Assembly: GCA_964431735.1 (NCBI GenBank)
Contig: CAYSLJ010000099.1
Span: forward strand, 1 to 28,625
Length of the DNA stretch: 28,625 bases
Direction of reading: 5' to 3'
Source: an uncultured Synergistia bacterium
Lineage (GTDB): Bacteria; Vulcanimicrobiota; SpSt-956; JAKJGF01
Part shown: positions 538 to 17,152 of the stretch, one piece after another
How positions within the stretch are numbered: the first letter of the stretch is position 1
How the letters are laid out: every line of letters begins with the position of its first letter
Program-made: the position numbers and the translations under genes
The notes under the pieces: generated by a model
Told to the model about the DNA's origin: nothing
The model's database searches: none
The model's input: the letters and a program-made list of their open reading frames with translations, nothing else

Positions 538-2535
538 TTAATTTTCCCCTAATTTGCCTGACATATAGGCCTGTATCTCTGATAATATAGTAGATCTCCA
601 GTAATAACCGAGTGCTTCAATCTGTTCTTCAGAATTTCCCTGTCTCAACAGAGATGCATTTTCATAATAACATATTGGCAGAACAGAATTCTCTTCCCCG
701 TTAAGATGTATAAGAGACAGAGCTCTTTTATCTGCAAAATTCAACATATTTGCAAGAGCTCTTTCGTTTTTTATAGATACAACCTGTGTATAATTTTTAT
801 CAAACTGAGGATCAAGGGAATAAAATTTTGCTATTAACTGTGCGGATAATGTATAGGTAGATGAAGCTTCTCCTATAATCATGGGAGCAGATTCAGCCGT
901 TTCTGAAAATTCCTTTTTCATTAATTCAACGCCATAGGTACTTGCAAAAGCCATCATATATCTGTTATCAAGCTTCATAAAATTATATTTCATAACATCT
1001 GAATGGATACCTGCAGATTTTGCATATTCGTCTACAATAGTGCTTTCAAAATAAGACATATTTGCCTTTGCCGCTCCTGCCATTATTTCTCCTAATTTTA
1101 CAAGGTCATCATTATTTACAGTGGCAGGACTTCCGAAATCTTTGGCAATATCGAGACAATCCTTTGTAATAGTAAGCAAAGCACTGGCACAGCAATAATA
1201 ATACCCTACATAATAAAGTTCTTCCATAAGCTGTGCTTCATCATAGGAACTGATATTTTTCTGTATTGTACTGATTTTATCATCTGCAAGCAAGATGAAT
1301 CCTTCTGCCATTGTGAGTTTGCTGTAGGCTTCAAATAATGCCACATAATCACTGGTAGATTCAACATCTTCTGCTTTAAGATTATCCATAGCAGCACTTA
1401 ACTCGGTTTTAACAGATTCCTTGCTTTCAAGATAGGATATGGCGCCATCAAAACCGCTGTTCTGATAACGCTGTATCATATTCATGGCAAGTACTATGGC
1501 ATCCATCTGAACAGTAGCTCCCGTTGCCCTGTCATAGGCCACACTGGCCATACCCTGGGAAAGGGCATTATCGGCTTTTTGAGCCAGTTCATCAACCATG
1601 CCGGCAAATGCGCCGAAATAGGTCTGATAATCTTTAGGGAACGACTTATACTCACCTTTTAATTTTTTGTATCTGCTGTACCATTCCTTTGCTCTTCCTT
1701 TAAATCTGTCAAAGGCTTTTGACGGCAGTTGAGGAGGTGTATCGGAAACCTCCATTTGAGGAAGACTGTCTCCTGTAAGAAGTTTATATGCTTCATATAC
1801 ATTGGAGACTTCCTTTACTTCCAGACCAAGCTTCTTTCCTTTTTCTATAACATCAATAGATGCTTTTGTACCCATATCAACTGAATATCTCTGTCCTGCA
1901 GGAATAAGAACAAGGATTTTTCCTTTTTTCTGAGCACCGTAAAGTTTCTGCGGTATACCTCCTACAGGGCCTATTGTGCCATCAGGATTAATGGTTCCTG
2001 TCATAGTTGCATCTTCTCTTACCTGCTGTCCGCGAAGAGCAGCAAGTGTTCCTACCGTCATAAGACACCCTGCACTGGGGCCGTCAATTCTGCCGCCTGT
2101 ATCGAAAGAAAATTCGTAATTTGTGGCATCTTTACCAAGGAGCATATTTGCAAGAACAACTGCCATCCATCCGGAAGAGCGCCACATATTCCCTGTTCCT
2201 CCTGCTTCACTTTCACCGAAGGAAACTTTCATTTTTTCACTGGTTTTCTTTTCTGCTTTTATTATCACCTCGCTGGATCCACCACTGGGAGGATCACCGC
2301 CTAAATAATAAAGAGCATCTATTTTTACCTCTTTTTCTTCCTCTGTGCCGGAAGTTACAGGTGTTACTTCACCTGTGGAAGGAGTTTTTTGAGATACGTC
2401 CGTTCCCGGAGTTACACTGTCTGAAGGGATCTGCTGGAATAATTTAGTGCATGGAGGACAGCAGCAGGAAGAAAATAAAAGTGTTATAAGACAGATAAAT
2501 ACAGAAATAGAGAGCATTTTTGTTACTTTTTTCAT
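538..2535 (-). CDS. Lipoprotein with Lon-type (S16) serine protease domain and a ~380-aa C-terminal domain of unknown function
   Basis: Signal peptide plus lipobox-like LLFSSC, then a Thr/Ser/Glu-rich linker. Lon catalytic Ser motif DGPSAGCLMTVGTLAAL and Lys region GGIPQKLYGAQKKGKILVLIPAGQ are present. No AAA+ ATPase region. AAGGAGG Shine-Dalgarno 8 nt upstream of the ATG. Confidence 0.75.
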   Translation of the reverse strand: MKKVTKMLSISVFICLITLLFSSCCCPPCTKLFQQIPSDSVTPGTDVSQKTPSTGEVTPVTSGTEEEKEVKIDALYYLGGDPPSGGSSEVIIKAEKKTSEKMKVSFGESEAGGTGNMWRSSGWMAVVLANMLLGKDATNYEFSFDTGGRIDGPSAGCLMTVGTLAALRGQQVREDATMTGTINPDGTIGPVGGIPQKLYGAQKKGKILVLIPAGQRYSVDMGTKASIDVIEKGKKLGLEVKEVSNVYEAYKLLTGDSLPQMEVSDTPPQLPSKAFDRFKGRAKEWYSRYKKLKGEYKSFPKDYQTYFGAFAGMVDELAQKADNALSQGMASVAYDRATGATVQMDAIVLAMNMIQRYQNSGFDGAISYLESKESVKTELSAAMDNLKAEDVESTSDYVALFEAYSKLTMAEGFILLADDKISTIQKNISSYDEAQLMEELYYVGYYYCCASALLTITKDCLDIAKDFGSPATVNNDDLVKLGEIMAGAAKANMSYFESTIVDEYAKSAGIHSDVMKYNFMKLDNRYMMAFASTYGVELMKKEFSETAESAPMIIGEASSTYTLSAQLIAKFYSLDPQFDKNYTQVVSIKNERALANMLNFADKRALSLIHLNGEENSVLPICYYENASLLRQGNSEEQIEALGYYWRSTILSEIQAYMSGKLGEN

Positions 2536-2558
2536 TTAAATAACCTCCTTAAAAAAAT

Positions 2559-2588
2559 CGTGACGCGTGACGCGTGACGCGTGACGCG
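2559..2588. repeat. Tandem heptamer array (CGTGACG)x4, directly 5' of the Lon-like gene start
   Basis: cgtgacgcgtgacgcgtgacgcgtgacgcg. On the gene's sense strand it reads ...cgtcacgcgtcacgatttttttAAGGAGGttatttaaATG. Confidence 0.9.
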
Positions 2589-2708
2589 AGGTAAAACCTG
2601 AGATGTCAGAGAGAAAACATTGCCGGTTATACTTCCTGACAGATTATATTACAGGCTTCCAGATATAAATTCTTCTAAAATCTATAAATTTCCTACATAA
2701 ATATAAAT

Positions 2709-3113
2709 TTATTTCTTCCCGCCTATGATACGGGAAATTTTTGTTTCCAGAAGAAGGGGAAATTCAGTAAAAAGCTTCTCGTTCAAACAGGCCTGAAACC
2801 ACAAAAGCCCCGGCCTGTAAAGGGGAAAATTCTTTAAAGGCGATAAAAACCTCTTAACGGTACATTGCTGATCAGAATGAAAATTTCTCTTTAAAATCTC
2901 GAAATAAAGCTGATCCTTCTGGGCTGTAAGTATTTTTATCTCTTCTTTATAATCACCTTCAGGAACAACCCATTCCGTAACGATACAGAAAGAAATATTT
3001 GAAGGATATGTTACAGCCTTTATTTTATTAAATATACCGCTCAATACAGGTCTTTCTGACATATCTTTACCTATGGCATCACATAATATAAATGATTTTA
3101 TAAAAGCTTCCAA
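2709..3113 (-). CDS. Hypothetical protein (134 aa), TTG start
   Basis: ORF with AAGGAG Shine-Dalgarno 9 nt upstream of a TTG start. The same heptamer promoter-proximal module precedes it. I recognise no domain. Confidence 0.5.
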   Translation of the reverse strand: MEAFIKSFILCDAIGKDMSERPVLSGIFNKIKAVTYPSNISFCIVTEWVVPEGDYKEEIKILTAQKDQLYFEILKRNFHSDQQCTVKRFLSPLKNFPLYRPGLLWFQACLNEKLFTEFPLLLETKISRIIGGKK

Positions 3114-3132
3114 TATGATTGACTCCTTAAAT

Positions 3133-3162
3133 CGTGACGCGTGACGCGTGACGCGTGACGCG
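3133..3162. repeat. Tandem heptamer array (CGTGACG)x4, near-identical copy of the 2559-2588 array
   Basis: atcgtgacgcgtgacgcgtgacgcgtgacgcgagg is shared between the two loci, flanks included. It lies immediately 5' of the 2709..3113 gene start. Confidence 0.9.
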
Positions 3163-3241
3163 AGGATCGTTTATTATGAACAATATATATATTGATTTAT
3201 TCTATAAATATGAAAAAAATCCTACATAAGAATTATCTTCA

Positions 3242-3304
3242 GTGAGTAGTGAGTAGTGAGTAGTGAGTAGTGAGTAGTGAGTAGTGAGTAGTGAAAAGTG
3301 AATT
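3242..3304. repeat. Tandem heptamer array (GTGAGTA)x7 followed by GTGAAAA/GTGAATT units
   Basis: Perfect 7x7 bp tandem repeat 3242-3290, then degenerate GTGAnnn units. Confidence 0.95.
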
Positions 3305-3317
3305 TTACGCTTTACGT

Positions 3318-3434
3318 GTCACGCGTCACGATTTATAGTATCACGTATTACGCATCACGCATTACGCATCACGCATCATGCATCACGAACCACCCGTCAC
3401 ACGTCACGCGTTACGCGTCACGCGTCACGACTAT
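3318..3434. repeat. Composite heptamer array (TCACGCG / TCACGTA / TTACGCA / TCATGCA units) ending in the conserved module ...CCACCCGTCACACGTCACGCGTTACGCGTCACGCGTCACGACTA
   Basis: About 16 consecutive 7-bp units. The terminal part matches the modules at 13584-13620 (-), 17003-17035, 23345-23381 (-) and 25817-25853. Confidence 0.9.
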
Positions 3435-3457
3435 AGAAGAAATATTATACGTAAACT

Positions 3458-4819
3458 ATGCAGGAAATTAAAGATAAATTTAGAAATTCATTTATTATGA
3501 AACAAAAAGTTATCAATGATCCTGTCCACGGATTTATACTTATAGATCCTCCGTTAATTCTGGAATTAATGGACAGTTATACCTTTCAGAGGCTCAGAAG
3601 GATAAGACAGTTAGGAACTACATTTATTACCTATCCCGGGGCGGAACATACAAGGTTTGCCCATTCAATAGGGGTTTTTTATCTTGCCACAAAGATAATA
3701 TCACACCTGTTAAACCTTTCGGGAAATCCTTTTTCTCATTTAAACAGAGAAGAGAAAGAAAGGCTTCACCTGCTGGTTCAGGTAGCAGGTCTGCTCCATG
3801 ATATAGGCCACGGGCCTCTTTCTCATGTATTCGAACGTATTTTCGGCCTGCCCCATGAAGAATGGACAAAAAAAATAATACTCGGTGATGAAAATTGTAA
3901 TGAAATCTACAATATACTGACAGGAAAAAATAATCCTTTCGGAAAAGATTTTCCCTCAGACCTTCTGGCAATACTCAATAATAAATATATAGATCCGAAG
4001 GAAGGATATCTGTCCTGTGTAAATCCCATCATATCAAGCCAGTTAGATGCAGACAGACTCGATTACCTTCAGAGAGATGCCTACTATACGGGAGTAAGAT
4101 CGGGTTTTATAGATGCAGACAGGATAATTTATACACTCGATCTTTATAAATCGGAAGAAGACGGTAAAATAAAAGAAAAAATCGTAGTATGGGATAAAAG
4201 CTTTTATAATGTGGAAGAATATATTTTTTCCAGATATTATATGTACTGGAAGGTATATCACCACAGGACTACAAGGTTTTTCGATTTGCTCTTTATGAAT
4301 ATAGTAAAAAGACTTAAAGAGAGTAAAGAACCTGATGACGTAAGTATTGCCTCCAAGAATCTTTTAAACATACTCATAAAACCTTCTCCGTCTCTCCAGG
4401 ACTGGCTTATGCTCGACGAATCCGATTTACTTTATTCAATCAAGATGTGGGCCTTCCACGGTAAGGATGCAATACTGAAAGATCTATGTGAAAGATTCAT
4501 AAAAAGAAAGGTTTTTAAATCTATTCCAGATTCATTCATAATGAATGAAGAAAAAATAGAAGAAGTAAAATCTTTCCTTCTCGGGAAAGGTCTATCACCT
4601 GAATATTATTTCCTTCAGGATACGGCGTCTAAAGTAGCCTATGATTTTTATACGGAAGAACATGAACGTATCTATATAATGGACAAATATACCCATAAAC
4701 CATGCCCCATATCAGACTTATCCGATAAAGTAAGAACACTGGCACAGAAAAATGTAGAAAAAAGATTTTATGTACATCCCGATTTTCATGAAGATATTTT
4801 AAATATTCTGAAAGGCTAA
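3458..4819 (+). CDS. HD-domain phosphohydrolase, dNTP triphosphohydrolase (dGTPase/SAMHD1-like, COG1078-type)
   Basis: N-terminal DPVHGFI...FQRLRRIRQLG...YPGAEHTRFAHSIGV and HD motif LLHDIGHGPLSH. 453 aa. The start could alternatively be the Met at 3497 (MKQKVINDPVHGF). Confidence 0.8.
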   Translation: MQEIKDKFRNSFIMKQKVINDPVHGFILIDPPLILELMDSYTFQRLRRIRQLGTTFITYPGAEHTRFAHSIGVFYLATKIISHLLNLSGNPFSHLNREEKERLHLLVQVAGLLHDIGHGPLSHVFERIFGLPHEEWTKKIILGDENCNEIYNILTGKNNPFGKDFPSDLLAILNNKYIDPKEGYLSCVNPIISSQLDADRLDYLQRDAYYTGVRSGFIDADRIIYTLDLYKSEEDGKIKEKIVVWDKSFYNVEEYIFSRYYMYWKVYHHRTTRFFDLLFMNIVKRLKESKEPDDVSIASKNLLNILIKPSPSLQDWLMLDESDLLYSIKMWAFHGKDAILKDLCERFIKRKVFKSIPDSFIMNEEKIEEVKSFLLGKGLSPEYYFLQDTASKVAYDFYTEEHERIYIMDKYTHKPCPISDLSDKVRTLAQKNVEKRFYVHPDFHEDILNILKG

Positions 4820-4900
4820 AGAACCTTGTCATGAATGGAGTGTAAACCTCTGTTAAAACCTTATAGAAACAAAAGATCTTACAATTTCGTTAAAAATCCT

Positions 4901-4932
4901 CGTGTCACGCGTCACGCGTCACGCGTCACGAT
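4901..4932. repeat. Tandem heptamer array (TCACGCG)x4 ending cgtcacgattct immediately before the ATG at 4936
   Basis: cgtgtcacgcgtcacgcgtcacgcgtcacgattctATG. No Shine-Dalgarno lies between the array and the start. Confidence 0.9.
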
Positions 4933-4935
4933 TCT

Positions 4936-7330: not shown

Positions 7331-7346
7331 CGTGACGCGTGACGGG
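7331..7346. repeat. Short heptamer array (GTGACGC x2) in the 4936..7272 / 7397..7972 intergenic region
   Basis: cgtgacgcgtgacggg. A TATAAT hexamer lies 40 bp upstream at about 7289. Confidence 0.7.
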
Positions 7347-7972: not shown

Positions 7973-8130
7973 CAGGAAGCCAGTATGTTAGTAAAAATAT
8001 TAACATACTGGAGGTGTAACCATTGTTTCTTACTCTGAGAAAATCGGCTTTAACAGAAGAATTTGATTACAATTTTATCAAGTATGCCCTTCGTAAAAAA
8101 ATCAGGACTGTTCAATAAAAATATAAAGAA

Positions 8131-8168
8131 TTTATTACGAATAACGTAATAAATTCCGTAATTTTTTT
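8131..8168 (+). terminator. Candidate intrinsic terminator (AT-rich stem + T7 run) downstream of the 7397..7972 gene
   Basis: tttattacg-aataa-cgtaataaa stem-loop followed by ttccgtaattttttt. The stem has only 2 GC pairs. A separate perfect 11-bp hairpin (ccagtatgtta/taacatactgg) sits at 7980-8011 right after the stop. Confidence 0.3.
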
Positions 8169-8179
8169 GATAATAACAC

Positions 8180-8392
8180 TTATCCCTGATTTTGTTCAGC
8201 TTCTATCTGCCTGTCACATGTATCAAGATAATTTTTCCATAATCGTTTCTTACACTCAGAGCAGATAGTATGACTTATGTCCTGAATAATATCTGAAGTT
8301 TCCGTCCATATACCTGTATCAATATCTTTTACTTTTCTGCACCAGGCACATTGTTTTAATTTATACCTGGCTTTTTTTATAATATCTATAAT
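8180..8392 (-). CDS. Candidate small zinc-ribbon protein (two CxxC pairs) lacking a canonical start codon
   Basis: The minus-strand frame encodes ...KKARYKLKQCAWCRKVKDIDTGIWTETSDIIQDISHTICSECKKRLWKNYLDTCDRQIEAEQNQG*. It is preceded by an AAGGGGGG Shine-Dalgarno-like run. The only in-frame candidates are ATT/ATA/CTG, so it is absent from the supplied ORF track. The coordinates assume an ATT start. Confidence 0.25.
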   Translation of the reverse strand: MIDIIKKARYKLKQCAWCRKVKDIDTGIWTETSDIIQDISHTICSECKKRLWKNYLDTCDRQIEAEQNQG

Positions 8393-8459
8393 AAAACTTC
8401 CCCCCTTCAGATGTTAGTAAGAAAATATCCGTATCAGACTTTCACAGGTGAAGGTCACA

Positions 8460-9848
8460 TCAATACCCATAAGACCATGACCAGGTTATATTATTATTAT
8501 CAACTCCATTATTTATCTTTATCTTTTGGGAATTATTCAGATATGGTGGATATTGCAGATTTCCATTTCCTTTAAATTCAACATTATCTCCAATAATAGC
8601 TCCATACATAGTCCCCTGGCCGGTATAAGTTACATCTCCATCCGGATTATATACAATACCATATGTTTCACCCTGGCCGGACACTTCTATATCAGTATAT
8701 CCACTGACTTCTGGATTGTAAGAAGGATTGGTAGTTTTTCCATTACTACCATAAATTATAATATCTGAAGCAAGAGTGGTTTCATTTGAGGGACGCATTA
8801 TAGATTGTCCGGTAAATTTAAACGTGTGACCTGCTTCACAGTATATCTCTACAGGTATAGGATTACCCTGAGCATCATTGCTAATAGACAGTCTTATATC
8901 AAGCTTTGATGCTGCTTTAAAATCAGATGCAATAACATATTTTCCTGATTTAAAAACCAGAACGGAATTATTTCCTCCGCCAACAGTCCCACCGCCAAAA
9001 TCATAAGCATAACCCGGTTCCAGTGTAACTGTCTGATTATTACTTATAGTAATAGTACCTGGATATAAAGTAAAAGATGGAGCCGTTATATCAGTCATAA
9101 GTGGGATCGGTGCAGGTAATACAAGGGTACCTTTATAATTAGATGAGCTAATTCCTCCTGAAACAACATCGTCGATAGTATTGGGATCATTACCACCATA
9201 GATATATCCATTGACAACAGTATTATGTCCCGTACTTATAGCACCTGATGCTGTAGAATTTACAGCTATATTTGCATAGGTATTGGGATCAGACGAATTA
9301 TAGCCTGTACTGACAACCTTACCGTTACCTGTAAATCTTATAGAAGTCTTTCCAGTTATAGCATTGGGAACAAGGGGTACTTCTTCCAGGAGGGCACTTC
9401 CTATAGCTATAACCCTTGCTTTGGATTTATAATTTGCAGAACTAACATATCCGCAGTAGCCCGTGGCAACAATTTCAACTTTTCCAGCGGGAATATTCGG
9501 TATAACACCGCTTATGGATGGTACAGACGTAGTTCCATTTATATTATTTTTTATCTGAACCTCGTAATATCCGCGGATTTTCTGGTCTGTAACAGTATAA
9601 GTAGTTAAAGGAGTAGGAGGTAATGGTGTATTACAATCAGGATCCTGTTCCACCATGTAAATAGCATAAGAGACACCGGCTTTGGCTGCTTCTACGGCTG
9701 TTATACTGTAATTTTTCTTTGTTATTACATTTGCCAGAGTCATACCTCTTACAACAAGAGCAGTCCCCAGAATAGCAATAAGAACAAGGGACATAATAGT
9801 AATAGCTATTCCCATACCTTTCTGGTTTTCAAATAACTTTTTCAACAT
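8460..9848 (-). CDS. PilX-like large minor pilin / pseudopilin (462 aa)
   Basis: N-terminal PilX_N-type hydrophobic segment MGIAITIMSLVLIAILGTALVVRGMTL, then a Gly/Thr/Asn-rich beta-rich region. AGGAGG Shine-Dalgarno 9 nt upstream. Last gene of the kinase-pilin cluster. Confidence 0.65.
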   Translation of the reverse strand: MLKKLFENQKGMGIAITIMSLVLIAILGTALVVRGMTLANVITKKNYSITAVEAAKAGVSYAIYMVEQDPDCNTPLPPTPLTTYTVTDQKIRGYYEVQIKNNINGTTSVPSISGVIPNIPAGKVEIVATGYCGYVSSANYKSKARVIAIGSALLEEVPLVPNAITGKTSIRFTGNGKVVSTGYNSSDPNTYANIAVNSTASGAISTGHNTVVNGYIYGGNDPNTIDDVVSGGISSSNYKGTLVLPAPIPLMTDITAPSFTLYPGTITISNNQTVTLEPGYAYDFGGGTVGGGNNSVLVFKSGKYVIASDFKAASKLDIRLSISNDAQGNPIPVEIYCEAGHTFKFTGQSIMRPSNETTLASDIIIYGSNGKTTNPSYNPEVSGYTDIEVSGQGETYGIVYNPDGDVTYTGQGTMYGAIIGDNVEFKGNGNLQYPPYLNNSQKIKINNGVDNNNITWSWSYGY

Positions 9849-13116: not shown

Positions 13117-13338
13117 TTATTCATTCTCTGTATAATCACTGCAACGCCAGATTCCGCCTTCTGCTCCGGCAAAAACACAGGTTTTATTTTTTATACAATT
13201 AGAACATAAACCTCCGGTATAATCTCTGGCTTTATTGTAAACAGAAATAATAGTATGTTCCTCTGTTCCTGAATGGCTACCACAGAATGGAAGATAAAGG
13301 TATATATCTTCATAAATGTATTCACTGATCTTTAACAC
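13117..13338 (-). CDS. Small Cys-rich protein (73 aa), GTG start with GGAGAAA Shine-Dalgarno
   Basis: Five Cys: CGSH, LCSNC, C54, RCSDY. A good ribosome-binding site 5 nt upstream of GTG. Sits between the 78-aa ORF and the kinase in the same orientation. Confidence 0.45.
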   Translation of the reverse strand: MLKISEYIYEDIYLYLPFCGSHSGTEEHTIISVYNKARDYTGGLCSNCIKNKTCVFAGAEGGIWRCSDYTENE

Positions 13339-13568
13339 AGGATTTCTCCTTTATCACAAAGATTATAGAATGAAAATTCAATTAATATAATGGCAAATTC
13401 TGTACCAACAGGAAAGTTACCGTTACAGAGCAATAATTTTCTCTTTACAGTATAAGGAATTGAATAGCAAATAAAAAATTTTAAGGAGAAAAAAATCATG
13501 AAAAAAACATTTTTTATCGGGGAAATATACCTCGGTGGGGAATTTTTACCCATTTTTTCAGCTATCAA
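13332..13568 (-). CDS. Hypothetical small hydrophobic protein (73-78 aa)
   Basis: ORF immediately 3' of the conserved CGTCACGAT module. Overlaps the next gene by 7 nt (GTGTTAA). No convincing Shine-Dalgarno. A 28-codon plus-strand ORF with a perfect TAAGGAG Shine-Dalgarno (13498..13584) lies antisense to its 5' end. Confidence 0.3.
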   Translation of the reverse strand: MIAEKMGKNSPPRYISPIKNVFFMIFFSLKFFICYSIPYTVKRKLLLCNGNFPVGTEFAIILIEFSFYNLCDKGEILC

Positions 13569-13583
13569 TATAGATACTTTATA

Positions 13584-13645
13584 ATCGTGACGCGTAACGT
13601 GTAATGCGTGACGGGTGGTTCGTGATGCGTGATGCGTGATGCGTT
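13584..13645. repeat. Heptamer array (CGTGACG / CGTAACG / GTAATGC / CGTGATG units) containing the conserved module in minus orientation
   Basis: Its reverse complement reads catcacgcatcacgcatcacgaaccacccgtcacgcattacacgttacgcgtcacgat, matching 3370-3432 and 25800-25853. Confidence 0.9.
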
Positions 13646-15075: not shown

Positions 15076-15134
15076 TTACACACACCTTCCCTGTATTCAT
15101 GACGTGTTATGCGTCACATTAAAGTTATTTCTTC

Positions 15135-15156
15135 CCGTCACCCGTTACCCGTTACG
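15135..15156. repeat. Heptamer array (CCGTCAC/CCGTTAC x3) overlapping the sensor-kinase stop codon
   Basis: ccgtcacccgttacccgttacg, in the opposite orientation to most promoter-proximal arrays. Confidence 0.8.
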
Positions 15157-16879: not shown

Positions 16880-16886
16880 AGTAATT

Positions 16887-17035
16887 CGTGACGCGTGACG
16901 CGTGGCGTGACGCGATGGTTTATTTTATTATATAAACATAATAACGTCGTAATGCGTGATGCGTAATGCGTGATGCGTAATGCGTGATGCGCAGGGATTA
17001 AACCCGTCACGCGTCACGCGTTACGCGTCACGACT
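16887..17035. repeat. Divergent intergenic region made of three heptamer arrays plus the conserved CGTCACGACTATAAT module
   Basis: (GTGACGC)x3 abuts the kinase start. GTAATGC/GTGATGC x7 runs 16948-16992. Then aaacccgtcacgcgtcacgcgttacgcgtcacgactataat at 17001-17040, which includes a TATAAT hexamer. Confidence 0.9.
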
Positions 17036-17152
17036 ATAATATATTATACGTCATATTTCTTAAGTGATCAAATAATTTGACATTAATAATTTAAAAATAT
17101 ATAATATTTGTAAATATAACCATATATTCAGAATGAAAGAAGGTTCGAATAA

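Follow-up and report, generated by a model that had tools for sequence, protein, structure and literature searches.

A lineage-wide family of intergenic heptanucleotide repeats with a TCAC/GTGA core, ordered by strand relative to gene starts and stops

The 28,625-nucleotide contig CAYSLJ010000099.1 (the window, by which we mean the whole stretch of DNA analysed) is a chromosomal contig of 36% GC with an ordinary gene set, and our subject is a repeated element in its intergenic spacers, seen among other places at 3391-3457. The genes of the window include those for a Lon-like protease, an HD-domain protein, a helicase-nuclease, a Ser/Thr kinase, a sigma-54 activator, a CHASE4 histidine kinase, two radical-SAM proteins and an MVP-like protein, as well as lepA and glgC. 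Region 3391-3457 reads …CATCACGAACCACCCGTCACACGTCACGCGTTACGCGTCACGCGTCACGACTATAGAAG…, and the ATG at 3458 comes next. An earlier note had described a conserved box of about 40 bp at ten sites, placed in one orientation just upstream of start codons, and had offered a promoter/UP element, a binding array for a global regulator or a structured 5′ leader as its nature. All ten sites exist, their coordinates are correct, and none is expected from shuffles. A search of the whole window on both strands gave no Rfam 15 match at or above the gathering score.

The composite pattern CCWCCYGTCACGCGTYACGCGTYACGCGTCACGAYT, with up to three mismatches allowed, matched ten times at nine distinct sites (Table 1), where 100 shuffles gave an expectation of zero. 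Its short form CGTCACGCGTCACGAWT had ten matches in the window, 16884-16900(-) among them, and the 14-mer CGTCACGCGTYACG had 32 matches in the 28.6 kb with at most one mismatch, again with zero expected from 100 shuffles. A multiple alignment of the sites showed a (CGTYACG)n core that does not vary, flanked by CCNC(C/G)… on one side and …A(C/T)T on the other. Tandem Repeats Finder (TRF) described the module as a tandem array of CGTCACG/CGTTACG units with a period of 7 nt, usually of four units; the idea of a fixed box therefore gives way to that of an array of variable copy number. The sites at 2535, 3113 and 4936, previously taken for shorter versions, are in fact full four-unit modules with the flank CCTCG. 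Nearly all spacers in the window contain heptamer arrays of several unit families.

Counts were made on a corpus of 271 kb, which consisted of the window and 36 related loci drawn from metagenome-assembled genomes (MAGs) labelled Vulcanimicrobiota. A scan for (CGTCACG)3, with one genome per species, gave at least 109 loci. A metagenome scan with LepA gave one close relative (L111, 85%), and a protein search followed by contig look-up gave a second (L191); these two and the window are the three loci that were not picked for their arrays. Genes were called from hexamer log-odds together with Shine-Dalgarno (SD) and start-codon terms. The caller reproduced the earlier starts, and shifted that of hemW to 25882 and that of a radical-SAM gene to 17935, both in agreement with the orthologous N-termini in L191. 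Arrays were detected with TRF; CGTCACG, CGTTACG and CATCACG are referred to as A-type units and AGTGAGT, AGTGAAA and ATTCACC as B-type units, and there are further families besides.

Period 7 accounted for 209 TRF rows in the corpus, the next commonest periods giving 39 and 36 rows. Just 1 of 182 A- or B-type arrays lay inside a called gene, though 84% of the corpus is coding. The commonest unit, CGTCACG, is self-complementary. Perfect CGTYACG runs numbered 39 with two units, 30 with three, 36 with four, and one each with five and 14, and thus stop abruptly at four, while non-palindromic unit variants extend to 8-17 units. When 4-mers were counted without presupposing a motif, TCAC ranked first on the sense strand of 26 of the 36 start-proximal arrays, as did GTGA in 45 of the 67 stop-proximal ones; the three unit positions outside this core vary. 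Sense-strand composition was 36% C and 21% G before starts, and 34% G and 12% C after stops. The module is almost certainly the start-proximal form of a lineage-wide heptanucleotide family with a TCAC/GTGA core, which is remodelled by slippage, intergenic and governed by strand.

The distal units of arrays differ from CGTCACG mainly by CpG transitions (CG>TG, CG>CA) and so resemble older copies decayed by deamination. Such units are TGTCACG at 3317, 4903 and 25821, and CATCACG/CATTACG at 3340-3390 and 25786-25813; unlike these, the four units nearest the start codon remain pure. The sequence at 3390-3402, CCACCCGTCACAC, closely resembles the 16S ribosomal RNA (rRNA) stretch CCGCCCGUCACAC at about positions 1397-1409, which is universally conserved; with so many implicit comparisons, the likeness may be due to chance.

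The arrays are placed relative to gene ends by clear rules. A-type arrays with TCAC on the sense strand (n=77) lie upstream of starts at a median of 25 nt, and their distances peak sharply at 21-24 nt. Antisense A-type arrays (n=38) lie at a median of 224 nt, just one of them no more than 30 nt away. A-type arrays whose nearest gene end is a start are 53 sense to 1 antisense. When arrays of all families are counted up to 60 nt from the closest gene end, TYAC-sense arrays outnumber GTRA-sense arrays by 62:5 if that end is a start (p=1e-13), and GTRA-sense outnumber TYAC-sense by 58:19 if it is a stop (p=1e-5). Ratios of 36:5 at starts and 55:13 at stops remained once the arrays behind the retrieval of loci were removed, and the three unbiased loci alone gave 12:1 and 13:2. 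The earlier note had proposed a motif search relative to starts, and this search, made here on the 271 kb, does show bias in both orientation (62:5) and distance (the peak at 21-24 nt). Its opinion that the module is not random debris also holds, as the arrays are intergenic, strand-specific toward the downstream gene and sharply placed relative to starts. Its statement that orientation never varies is right for the ten listed sites but does not extend to the array at 7331-7344, which is antisense, or to that at 27040-27155, which lies past the hemW stop.

Arrays at starts end either 21-24 nt off, just 5′ of the SD, or 0-12 nt off without one, and arrays at stops mostly lie 0-3 nt past the stop; B-type GTGA-sense arrays begin at a median of 1.5 nt past stop codons. 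In class II, defined as 13-36 nt from the start, a clear SD lies in between in 28 of 43 genes, whereas in class I, 0-12 nt from the start, none of 14 genes has one (starts 4936, 16879, 17935 and 25882 are examples). The absence of an SD had been reported for 4936 and 3458; this is correct, and is likewise the case for 16879, 25882 and 17935. The typical module reads CCYCG-(CGTCACG)2-4-ATT, followed by 8-12 A/T-rich nt, AGGAGG, 6-9 nt and ATG. Of the 19 window genes, 7 have a TYAC-sense array no more than 30 nt from their start. Arrays abut start codons even within short co-directional spacers (lepA-hemW and CHAP-radical-SAM, in the window and in L191), a placement that links them to the start codon and not to a promoter, and they adjoin the SD even where the unique spacer upstream is longer than 100 nt, as in 2536-2708.

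The two strands of an array differ in their coding signals. TCAC-sense arrays contain stop codons in no frame, and ORF (open reading frame) finders therefore extend genes through them and set starts wrongly. The longest-ORF start of hemW is 25777, compared with 25882, and the kinase and radical-SAM starts differ between the identical records L191 and L192. On the GTRA strand GUG and UGA/UAA fall in each of the three frames, since 7 mod 3 = 1; GTGA-sense arrays near stops thus place TGA/TAA in every frame, and sense-strand stops are present in 84% of stop-proximal arrays. Against the canonical 16S 3′ tail, the TYAC strand scored a mean of -1.5 kcal/mol, with 3% of arrays at -6 or lower, and the GTRA strand a mean of -5.4 kcal/mol, with 32% at -6 or lower. 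A complementarity of GTGA units to this tail beyond the 4-mer was considered and rejected, since base pairing needs T at unit position 5, which is where T is least frequent; what is left is a moderate likeness of the GTRA strand to an SD.

Table 1. Heptamer arrays in the window, with matches to the composite pattern.
Coordinates	Strand	Feature	Position relative to genes	Composite match
2556..2591	-	Class II module CCTCG(CGTCACG)4ATT, then T-run, AAGGAGG	Array end 23 nt from ATG 2535 (Lon-like protease)	2556-2591
3130..3165	-	Class II module CCTCG(CGTCACG)4ATT, then AAGGAG	19 nt from TTG start 3113 (DUF6941 gene)	3130-3165
3241..3301	+	B-type (AGTGAGT)x8.7; TRF, 100% matches, score 108	Divergent spacer, upstream of A-type arrays toward HD-domain gene	
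3317..3432	+	Site under study: decayed A-type units (TGTCACG, CATCACG/CATTACG), AACCACC, then CGTCACA-CGTCACG-CGTTACG-CGTCACG-CGTCACG-ACT; TRF array 3340-3429, 12.9 copies	Ends 28 nt before ATG 3458 (HD-domain gene), no SD between	3390-3432
4898..4933	+	Class I module CCTCGTG(TCACGCG)…CACGATT	5 nt before ATG 4936 (helicase-nuclease), no SD	4898-4933
7331..7344	-	Two-unit A-type array, antisense; GTGA-sense on +	Between two + genes, 58 nt past stop 7272	
13583..13644	-	Composite (CATCACG)n-AACCACC-(CGTCACG-like)4-ATTATAA	87 nt past sigma-54 activator stop; next confident start 499 nt away	13583-13618
15134-15155	-	GTGA-sense stop array	Histidine-kinase stop	
16884..16914	-	Class I array	7 nt from histidine-kinase start 16879, no SD	
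16948..16991	-	(CATTACG/CATCACG)x6 (TRF), absent from L191	TYAC-sense toward kinase gene	
17000..17035	+	Module AAACC(CGTCACG,CGTCACG,CGTTACG,CGTCACG)ACT directly before conserved TATAAT	120 nt upstream of start 17153	17000-17035
17840..17856	+	Two-unit A-type array	Followed by GGGAGGG and start of 24-codon upstream ORF	
17908..17934	+	(ATTCACC)x4 (TRF)	Touches radical-SAM start 17935 (0 nt), no SD	
20741..20809	-	Inverted heptamer-array pair; 24-bp hairpin, -27.5 kcal/mol	Directly past MVP-like stop	
20777-20809	-	GTGA-sense stop array	MVP-like stop	
23346..23381	-	Module	80 nt upstream of MVP-like gene start 23268	23346-23381
23604..23639	+	Module CCTCC(CGTCACG,CGTTACGx3)ATT	272 nt upstream of lepA start 23909; upstream of conserved lepA promoter-like site, outside lepA leader	23604-23639
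25718..25775	+	Stop-proximal GTGA-sense arrays GTGAGTA x4.6, AGTGAAA x4.4	3 nt past lepA stop	
25786..25877	+	TYAC-sense arrays incl. composite CCACCTGTCACGCGTTACGCGTTACGCGTCACGATT	End 4 nt before hemW-like start 25882, no SD	25816-25851
27040..27155	+	17-unit (CGTGATG), GTGA-sense for hemW	Begins within hemW stop region, between convergent genes	
27177..27210	-	GTGA-sense array (TRF)	3 nt past glgC stop 27214	

The table holds both kinds of array. GTGA-sense arrays lie 0-3 nt past the stops of lepA, hemW, glgC, the MVP-like gene and the histidine kinase gene, or overlap them, and at 27040..27155 an A-type sequence serves after a stop, not before a start. The six modules that had been assigned to named genes are real sites, but two of them, 23609 and 13584, lie outside the leader of their assigned gene. 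For 13584(-) that gene was a putative small ORF, 13332-13568 (78 aa, TTG start).

Several further features lie beside these arrays. The hairpin past the MVP-like stop resembles a terminator or a 3′ stabiliser made of repeats, and further inverted array pairs that form long hairpins occur at 28516-28569 and, in L191, at about 9480-9560. The MVP-like gene itself, 20809-23268(-), has the major-vault-protein shoulder PF11978 (1.9e-29), a Vault_3 repeat and an SPFH/Band 7 match, and is conserved in L191 and L111. The upstream ORF of 24 codons at 17869-17940 has the strong SD GGGAGGG and continues across the (ATTCACC)4 array to a TAA stop that overlaps the start of the radical-SAM gene (ATGAATAA). 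Termination could here be coupled to reinitiation across a repeat without stops in any frame. Upstream of lepA, at about 23768-23803, a promoter-like TTGACA..TATAAT is conserved nearly base for base in L191 and L111, and the spacer around it, including the 23609 module, is not conserved in either. Neither a confident ORF nor an Rfam match was found in the spacers 19993-20808 (816 nt) and 7973-8459 (487 nt), and L191 retains part of the former (83% in the alignment of window 19393-20289). A recurring motif, TACATAAATATAAAT (33-48 and 2693-2708), was not significant.

Among the matches listed, the closest labelled relatives of the host are Vulcanimicrobiota MAGs, and about 36 low-GC loci with (CGTCACG)3 come from three of these, ER1, ER2 and CTOTU7676. 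L087, from ER1, is 86.6% identical to window 1609-3302. L191, whose LepA is 94% identical and whose coding DNA is about 86% identical, is collinear with window 13.9-28.6 kb; LepA is 85% identical in L111, and further relatives stand at 76-80%. Array density per 10 kb was 8.7 in the window, 8.3 in L191, 3.7 in L195, 3.0 in L111, and 0 in both L194 and L197. In relatives that are about 86% identical, orthologous spacers have other heptamers (GATCACT, ATTCACC, TCACGCA) or no array. Orientation and adjacency are kept there, and unit sequence, copy number and the presence of an array change.

The Lon-like start (2535) has four units in the window and two in L087, with flanks and SD intact, as would be expected of a 5′ untranslated region (UTR); the 3113 start has four units in L087 too, one of them with C>T at its unpaired centre. 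The kinase start (16879) has about 3.7 units in the window and five perfect units, 11 nt from the start, in L191. At the radical-SAM start, (ATTCACC)4 at the ATG in the window corresponds to (ACGCGTT)3 in L191, 8 nt from ATGAATAAA, with no SD in either. The MVP start has four CGTCACG units at 80 nt in the window, 11 GATCACT-like units at 21 nt in L191, and none in L111. The hemW start has (TCACGCA)n in both the window, where it abuts the ATG, and L191, where it is 2 nt away, and only a short GTGA-type array in L111. Past the lepA stop, the window has a GTGA-type array at 2-5 nt, and L191 and L111 each have a different GTGA-type array in the matching place. The module at 17005 is missing in L191 with the TATAAT kept (ACTATAAT…ATTATACGTCATATTT), and that at 23609 is missing there with the lepA promoter-like site kept. 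Since orthologs use other heptamers or none, the ACGCGT palindromes, which the earlier note had seen embedded in the module, are not the conserved feature; what is conserved is the TCAC core, the 7-nt period and the orientation.

Copy number thus differs between species (4 vs 2; about 3.7 vs 5). Could the arrays be contingency switches, in which each unit gained or lost (7 nt, a frame shift of +1) toggles the downstream gene within populations? The sense strand is open in three frames, the upstream ORF at 17869-17940 ends on the next start codon, and the in-frame upstream ATG of hemW at 25777 runs through the array, all of which would suit such phase variation. However, L191 and L192, which come from two independent metagenome samples, are 100% identical over 21.8 kb including 18 arrays, and the Logan contig L001 matches window positions 23616-25747 without a difference (all of these being consensus assemblies). 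The L191/L192 identity indicates that arrays are stable over short time scales. Moreover, the targets are housekeeping genes (hemW, Lon-like protease, helicase, kinase) rather than surface or restriction genes, and the majority of arrays are found neither in the ORF nor in the promoter spacer. We consider phase variation very improbable. Short-read contigs, L001 and several ER1/ER2 contig ends among them, begin or end inside heptamer arrays, which shows that arrays fragment assemblies of this lineage. The practical lesson is that gene starts may be mis-set through TCAC-sense arrays and that assemblies break at arrays.

A TATAAT-like sequence directly follows 3 of 10 modules (17033 ACTATAAT, 3430 ACTATAGA and 13583(-) ATTATAAA). 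In addition, GTGACG on the other strand matches TTGACA at 4 of 6 positions and was paired by the promoter scan with -10-like hexamers at 3148-3177 and 3329-3302, and deletion of the heptamer repeats in Nostoc altered the action of LexA and NtcA on a promoter (bioRxiv 10.1101/2022.06.06.494920). These observations favour an element that works at the level of DNA, with the ACGCGT array either binding a global transcription factor or nucleoid protein, or acting as a promoter, UP element or -35 substitute. The promoter scan as a whole was not enriched over shuffles (13 found, 9.3±3.1 expected), and the TATAAT at 17036, after the 17003-17035 module, is conserved in L191 without an array, which speaks against the array as an obligatory promoter or UP element, an option of the earlier note. 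The lepA promoter-like site is likewise separate from the 23609 module and downstream of it. A position locked to the start or SD (21-24 nt, or at the ATG) leaves no space for a -10 box and a leader, and arrays also occur within short operon-type spacers. As for a regulator, successive sites at a 7-bp period are 240° apart on the helix, a poor match for a dimeric DNA-binding protein; a 14-bp change in copy number is tolerated between orthologs; and the palindrome is dispensable, as orthologs use ATTCACC or GATCACT. The global-regulator binding array, or regulon box, is further disfavoured by the modules 17005, 23349 and 23609, which are absent or replaced in L191, and by the hemW and MVP modules, which are absent in L111. 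We regard a role at the DNA level as improbable. The link to the start codon inside operon-type spacers, together with the tolerated 14-nt change in length, points instead to RNA and translation, not to a promoter or operator. Among the three options of the earlier note the 5′ leader fits best, in that arrays end 5′ of the SD or at the ATG, also inside operons; its structured nature does not hold generally, as many arrays are predicted to be without structure.

The explanation we favour, with a probability of roughly 0.45, is that the start-proximal array is a strand-specific mRNA-leader element with an effect on translation initiation, which slippage makes and remodels. Start-proximal arrays would, as we tentatively suppose, be transcribed within the mRNA leader and act on initiation there. 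Class II arrays, which end about 22 nt before the start, would stand directly 5′ of the A/U-rich stretch and SD, and class I arrays would take the position of the SD in genes that lack one. The sense strand would offer a UCAC platform with a 7-nt period and without a start codon, stop codon or SD-like sequence, to be read by a putative trans-acting factor that binds single strands, or by the 30S subunit with protein S1. The CGUCACG version may additionally fold into an 11-bp hairpin that would bound the ribosome landing site. The reverse strand, which carries GUG, UGA/UAA in three frames and SD-like sequence, would be kept out of leaders and used past stops. A TCAC core that does not vary, a period kept at 7 nt and a dispensable palindrome would be expected under a reader that recognises single-stranded RNA periodically and by sequence.

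The folding calculations bear on both this explanation and one in which only structure matters. The four-unit CGUCACG core folds as (((((.(((((...))))).))))), an 11-bp hairpin with one C·C mismatch and -14.1 kcal/mol, and the common C>T variant CGTTACG has its change at the unpaired centre of the unit. The inverted arrays at 20741..20809 fold with z = -4.4, and 0 of 200 shuffles folded equally well. The sequence at 2563-2582(-) scores as terminator-like (hairpin and T-run), and between lepA and hemW a fold of -47.6 kcal/mol joins the GUGA trailer to the UCAC leader. Arrays might accordingly be structural punctuation of RNA, as 5′ stabilisers or insulators, RNase III or processing sites, or terminators, without a sequence-specific reader, and this too seems improbable to us. 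Many start-proximal arrays are unstructured, with a minimum free energy of about 0, and both strands of the palindromic unit fold equally, hence structure alone cannot yield the 62:5 bias. The lepA-hemW fold is marginal (z = -1.9) and absent in L191, and trailer-leader pairing as a general coupling hairpin was rejected. In the window only 2563-2582(-) has the form of an intrinsic terminator (GC-rich hairpin and U-run), the 3′ flank of arrays generally being ATT followed by A-rich sequence. The hairpin would thus seem to be an extra property of the CGUCACG version and not the basis shared by all arrays.

A number of results weigh against the leader explanation. No structure is predicted for many start-proximal arrays (ATTCACC, TTTCACT, CATCACG), and the hairpin is therefore not their common denominator. 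Orientation made no difference to the predicted accessibility of the initiation region, flipping arrays in silico having given 0.537 vs 0.532 (p=0.30). Sequestration of the SD by the CCUC flank was rejected as a mechanism, its mean pairing probability of 0.17 being too weak; replacing the flank raised SD accessibility from 0.475 to 0.52 (p=0.05), a weak effect. The modules 23609 and 13584 adjoin no confident start. We infer the place of arrays within 5′ UTRs from geometry only, and the reader of the UCAC platform is hypothetical. Finally, arrays are poorly conserved: L111 is without the hemW, MVP and lepA-upstream modules and the relatives at 76-80% may have none, losses which imply that no gene needs its array.

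These losses at orthologous spacers, with the fast turnover they reflect, are also among the observations that suit the main rival, a functionless selfish or neutral repeat that arises by slippage or spreads in dispensable intergenic DNA, with selection removing harmful orientations. Arrays would then grow until they met essential sequence (a stop codon, or the A/U-rich stretch and SD), strands rich in GUG/UGA and SD-like sequence would be barred from leaders, and palindromic runs of more than about four units would be lost as replication hairpins. In keeping with this, no functional pattern separates genes with arrays from genes without, and whole spacers are filled from stop to start (25715-25881 and 27052-27213), where the orthologous spacers are only 97 and 27 nt long. 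The stop at four units of perfect palindromic runs, set against 8-17 for non-palindromic variants, the CpG transitions in decayed units (TGTCACG, CATCACG), the asymmetry of coding signals between strands, which fits the orientation rule, and the array flip without predicted effect on accessibility would all follow as well. On the other hand, independent slippage cannot give an identical unit with CCYCG…ATT flanks in more than 100 spacers and in MAGs of other phyla. Such a repeat also leaves unexplained why TCAC/GTGA stays fixed while the other three positions drift, and why arrays adjoin the SD despite more than 100 nt of unique spacer upstream (2536-2708), and a ratio of 53:1 is very strong for a tolerance filter alone. 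On balance we think a functionless repeat, selfish or neutral, unlikely, though it deserves more weight than the other alternatives.

Identical (CGTCACG)n arrays are also found, among the matches listed, in Bacteroidota, Nitrospirota, Planctomycetota, Chloroflexota and other MAGs. They usually stand beside further heptamer arrays (GTGACAG, CCAGTTCA, GTGGTTA), often shortly before an ATG; examples are L010, L070, L073, L076 and L093 (Nitrospira) and L014, L016, L023, L056 and L063 (Bacteroidales). Several Nitrospira loci, inspected by eye, show GTGACAG arrays, then CGTCACG arrays, then ATG. With crude ORF calling, the orientation count across phyla was 10 vs 6 at GC<0.60, and noise at higher GC. 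A bolder version of the leader explanation, which we offer as speculation, is a strand-coded "gene punctuation" with UCAC before starts and GUGA past stops, both read by a conserved partner. That partner, equally speculative, would be an oligomeric RNA-binding protein or the ribosome, and would set initiation, including initiation independent of the SD, and handle ribosomes after termination. If true, the code would be common to the Bacteroidota, Nitrospirota and Planctomycetota with identical CGTCACG arrays, and it would give the STRR (short tandemly repeated repetitive) and TAACTGA heptamer repeats one common function.

How do these arrays compare with known systems? REP/BIME elements are imperfect palindromes of 20-40 nt with a conserved 5′ GT[AG]G, which lie mostly 3′ of genes, are associated with RAYT and can stabilise or punctuate mRNA. 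The modules resemble them in being short (about 35 nt), hairpin-forming, repeated intergenic elements with conserved ends, but consist of tandem heptamers of which only the CGTCACG version is palindromic, have the flanks CCYCG…ATT and not GTAG, and lie 5′ of the ribosome-binding site (RBS). Oligomeric RNA-binding regulators provide an analogy of mechanism only: HutP reads UAG every 7 nt, TRAP reads GAG/UAG repeats, and cold-shock proteins have sites of 6-7 nt. Such sites share with the arrays a short core at a fixed period in the leader, with variable bases between; they occur, however, at one or a few operons, and the arrays before about a third of genes. The STRR units of heterocystous cyanobacteria are CCCCAGT, TTGGTCA and CAACAGT, none of which is among the array families here. 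As in STRR and Nostoc, several tandem heptamer families are dispersed in the intergenic DNA of one genome.

In Nostoc PCC 7120, heptamers in three to eight contiguous copies lie within 30-100 nt of starts or -10 boxes of a dozen or more genes (bioRxiv 10.1101/2022.06.06.494920); some overlap the start codon, and their deletion alters reporter behaviour (Pradhan et al. 2022, bioRxiv 10.1101/2022.06.06.494920). The units there are TTTTGAA and GACYAAT, the phylum is different, and neither an orientation grammar for starts and stops nor a common core has been reported. Long simple sequence repeats (LSSR) of prokaryotes form a class with units of 5-11 nt, in which, as related in PMC4679880, heptamers are most abundant in most LSSR genomes, occurrence is sporadic across bacteria and slippage is the accepted origin (Mrazek et al. 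2007, via PMC4679880). In that account LSSR are a descriptive class without a rule for position or orientation relative to genes, and none is reported for the present lineage.

The closest precedent is the TAACTGA repeat (MacGregor 2015, PMC4679880), of which 170 sets of 2-6 copies were described, mostly intergenic and forward-oriented. The largest class ends 1 nt before the start, mostly without an RBS; the repeats occur in marine Beggiatoaceae and in some Cyanobacteria and Bacteroidetes, at genes of unrelated function, and a post-transcriptional regulator was proposed (PMC4679880). Like these, the arrays described here are tandem heptamers, intergenic, oriented to the start and scattered over unrelated phyla. 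An end near the start without an RBS is true of class I here, while the class II majority ends 13-36 nt off. Furthermore, the units are CGTCACG, CGTTACG, CATCACG, ATTCACC and others, with no TAACTGA among the top array families. The main unit is self-complementary and forms a hairpin, many unit variants coexist, whereas related heptamers are rarely repeated in BOGUAY, there is a mirror-image GTGA-sense class past stops, and the host belongs to a low-GC lineage labelled Vulcanimicrobiota.

A literature search gave nothing relevant on the unit CGTCACG or its rotations, and nothing on heptamer repeats in Eremiobacterota/Vulcanimicrobiota. What is new here is the TCAC/GTGA-core unit family, its self-complementary main unit, the class 5′ of the SD, the mirror class past stops and the host lineage. 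Start-adjacent heptamers are known in cyanobacteria (STRR, Nostoc) and Beggiatoaceae (TAACTGA), where their mechanism is not established. The present lineage is an unusually clean case, with an array at about a third of window genes, mirrored rules and an invariant core of four bases, and its genomes of about 86% identity provide natural "swap experiments". Together they make it a testable question whether bacterial heptamer repeats, from TAACTGA and STRR to the arrays described here, are functional translation signals or filtered junk.

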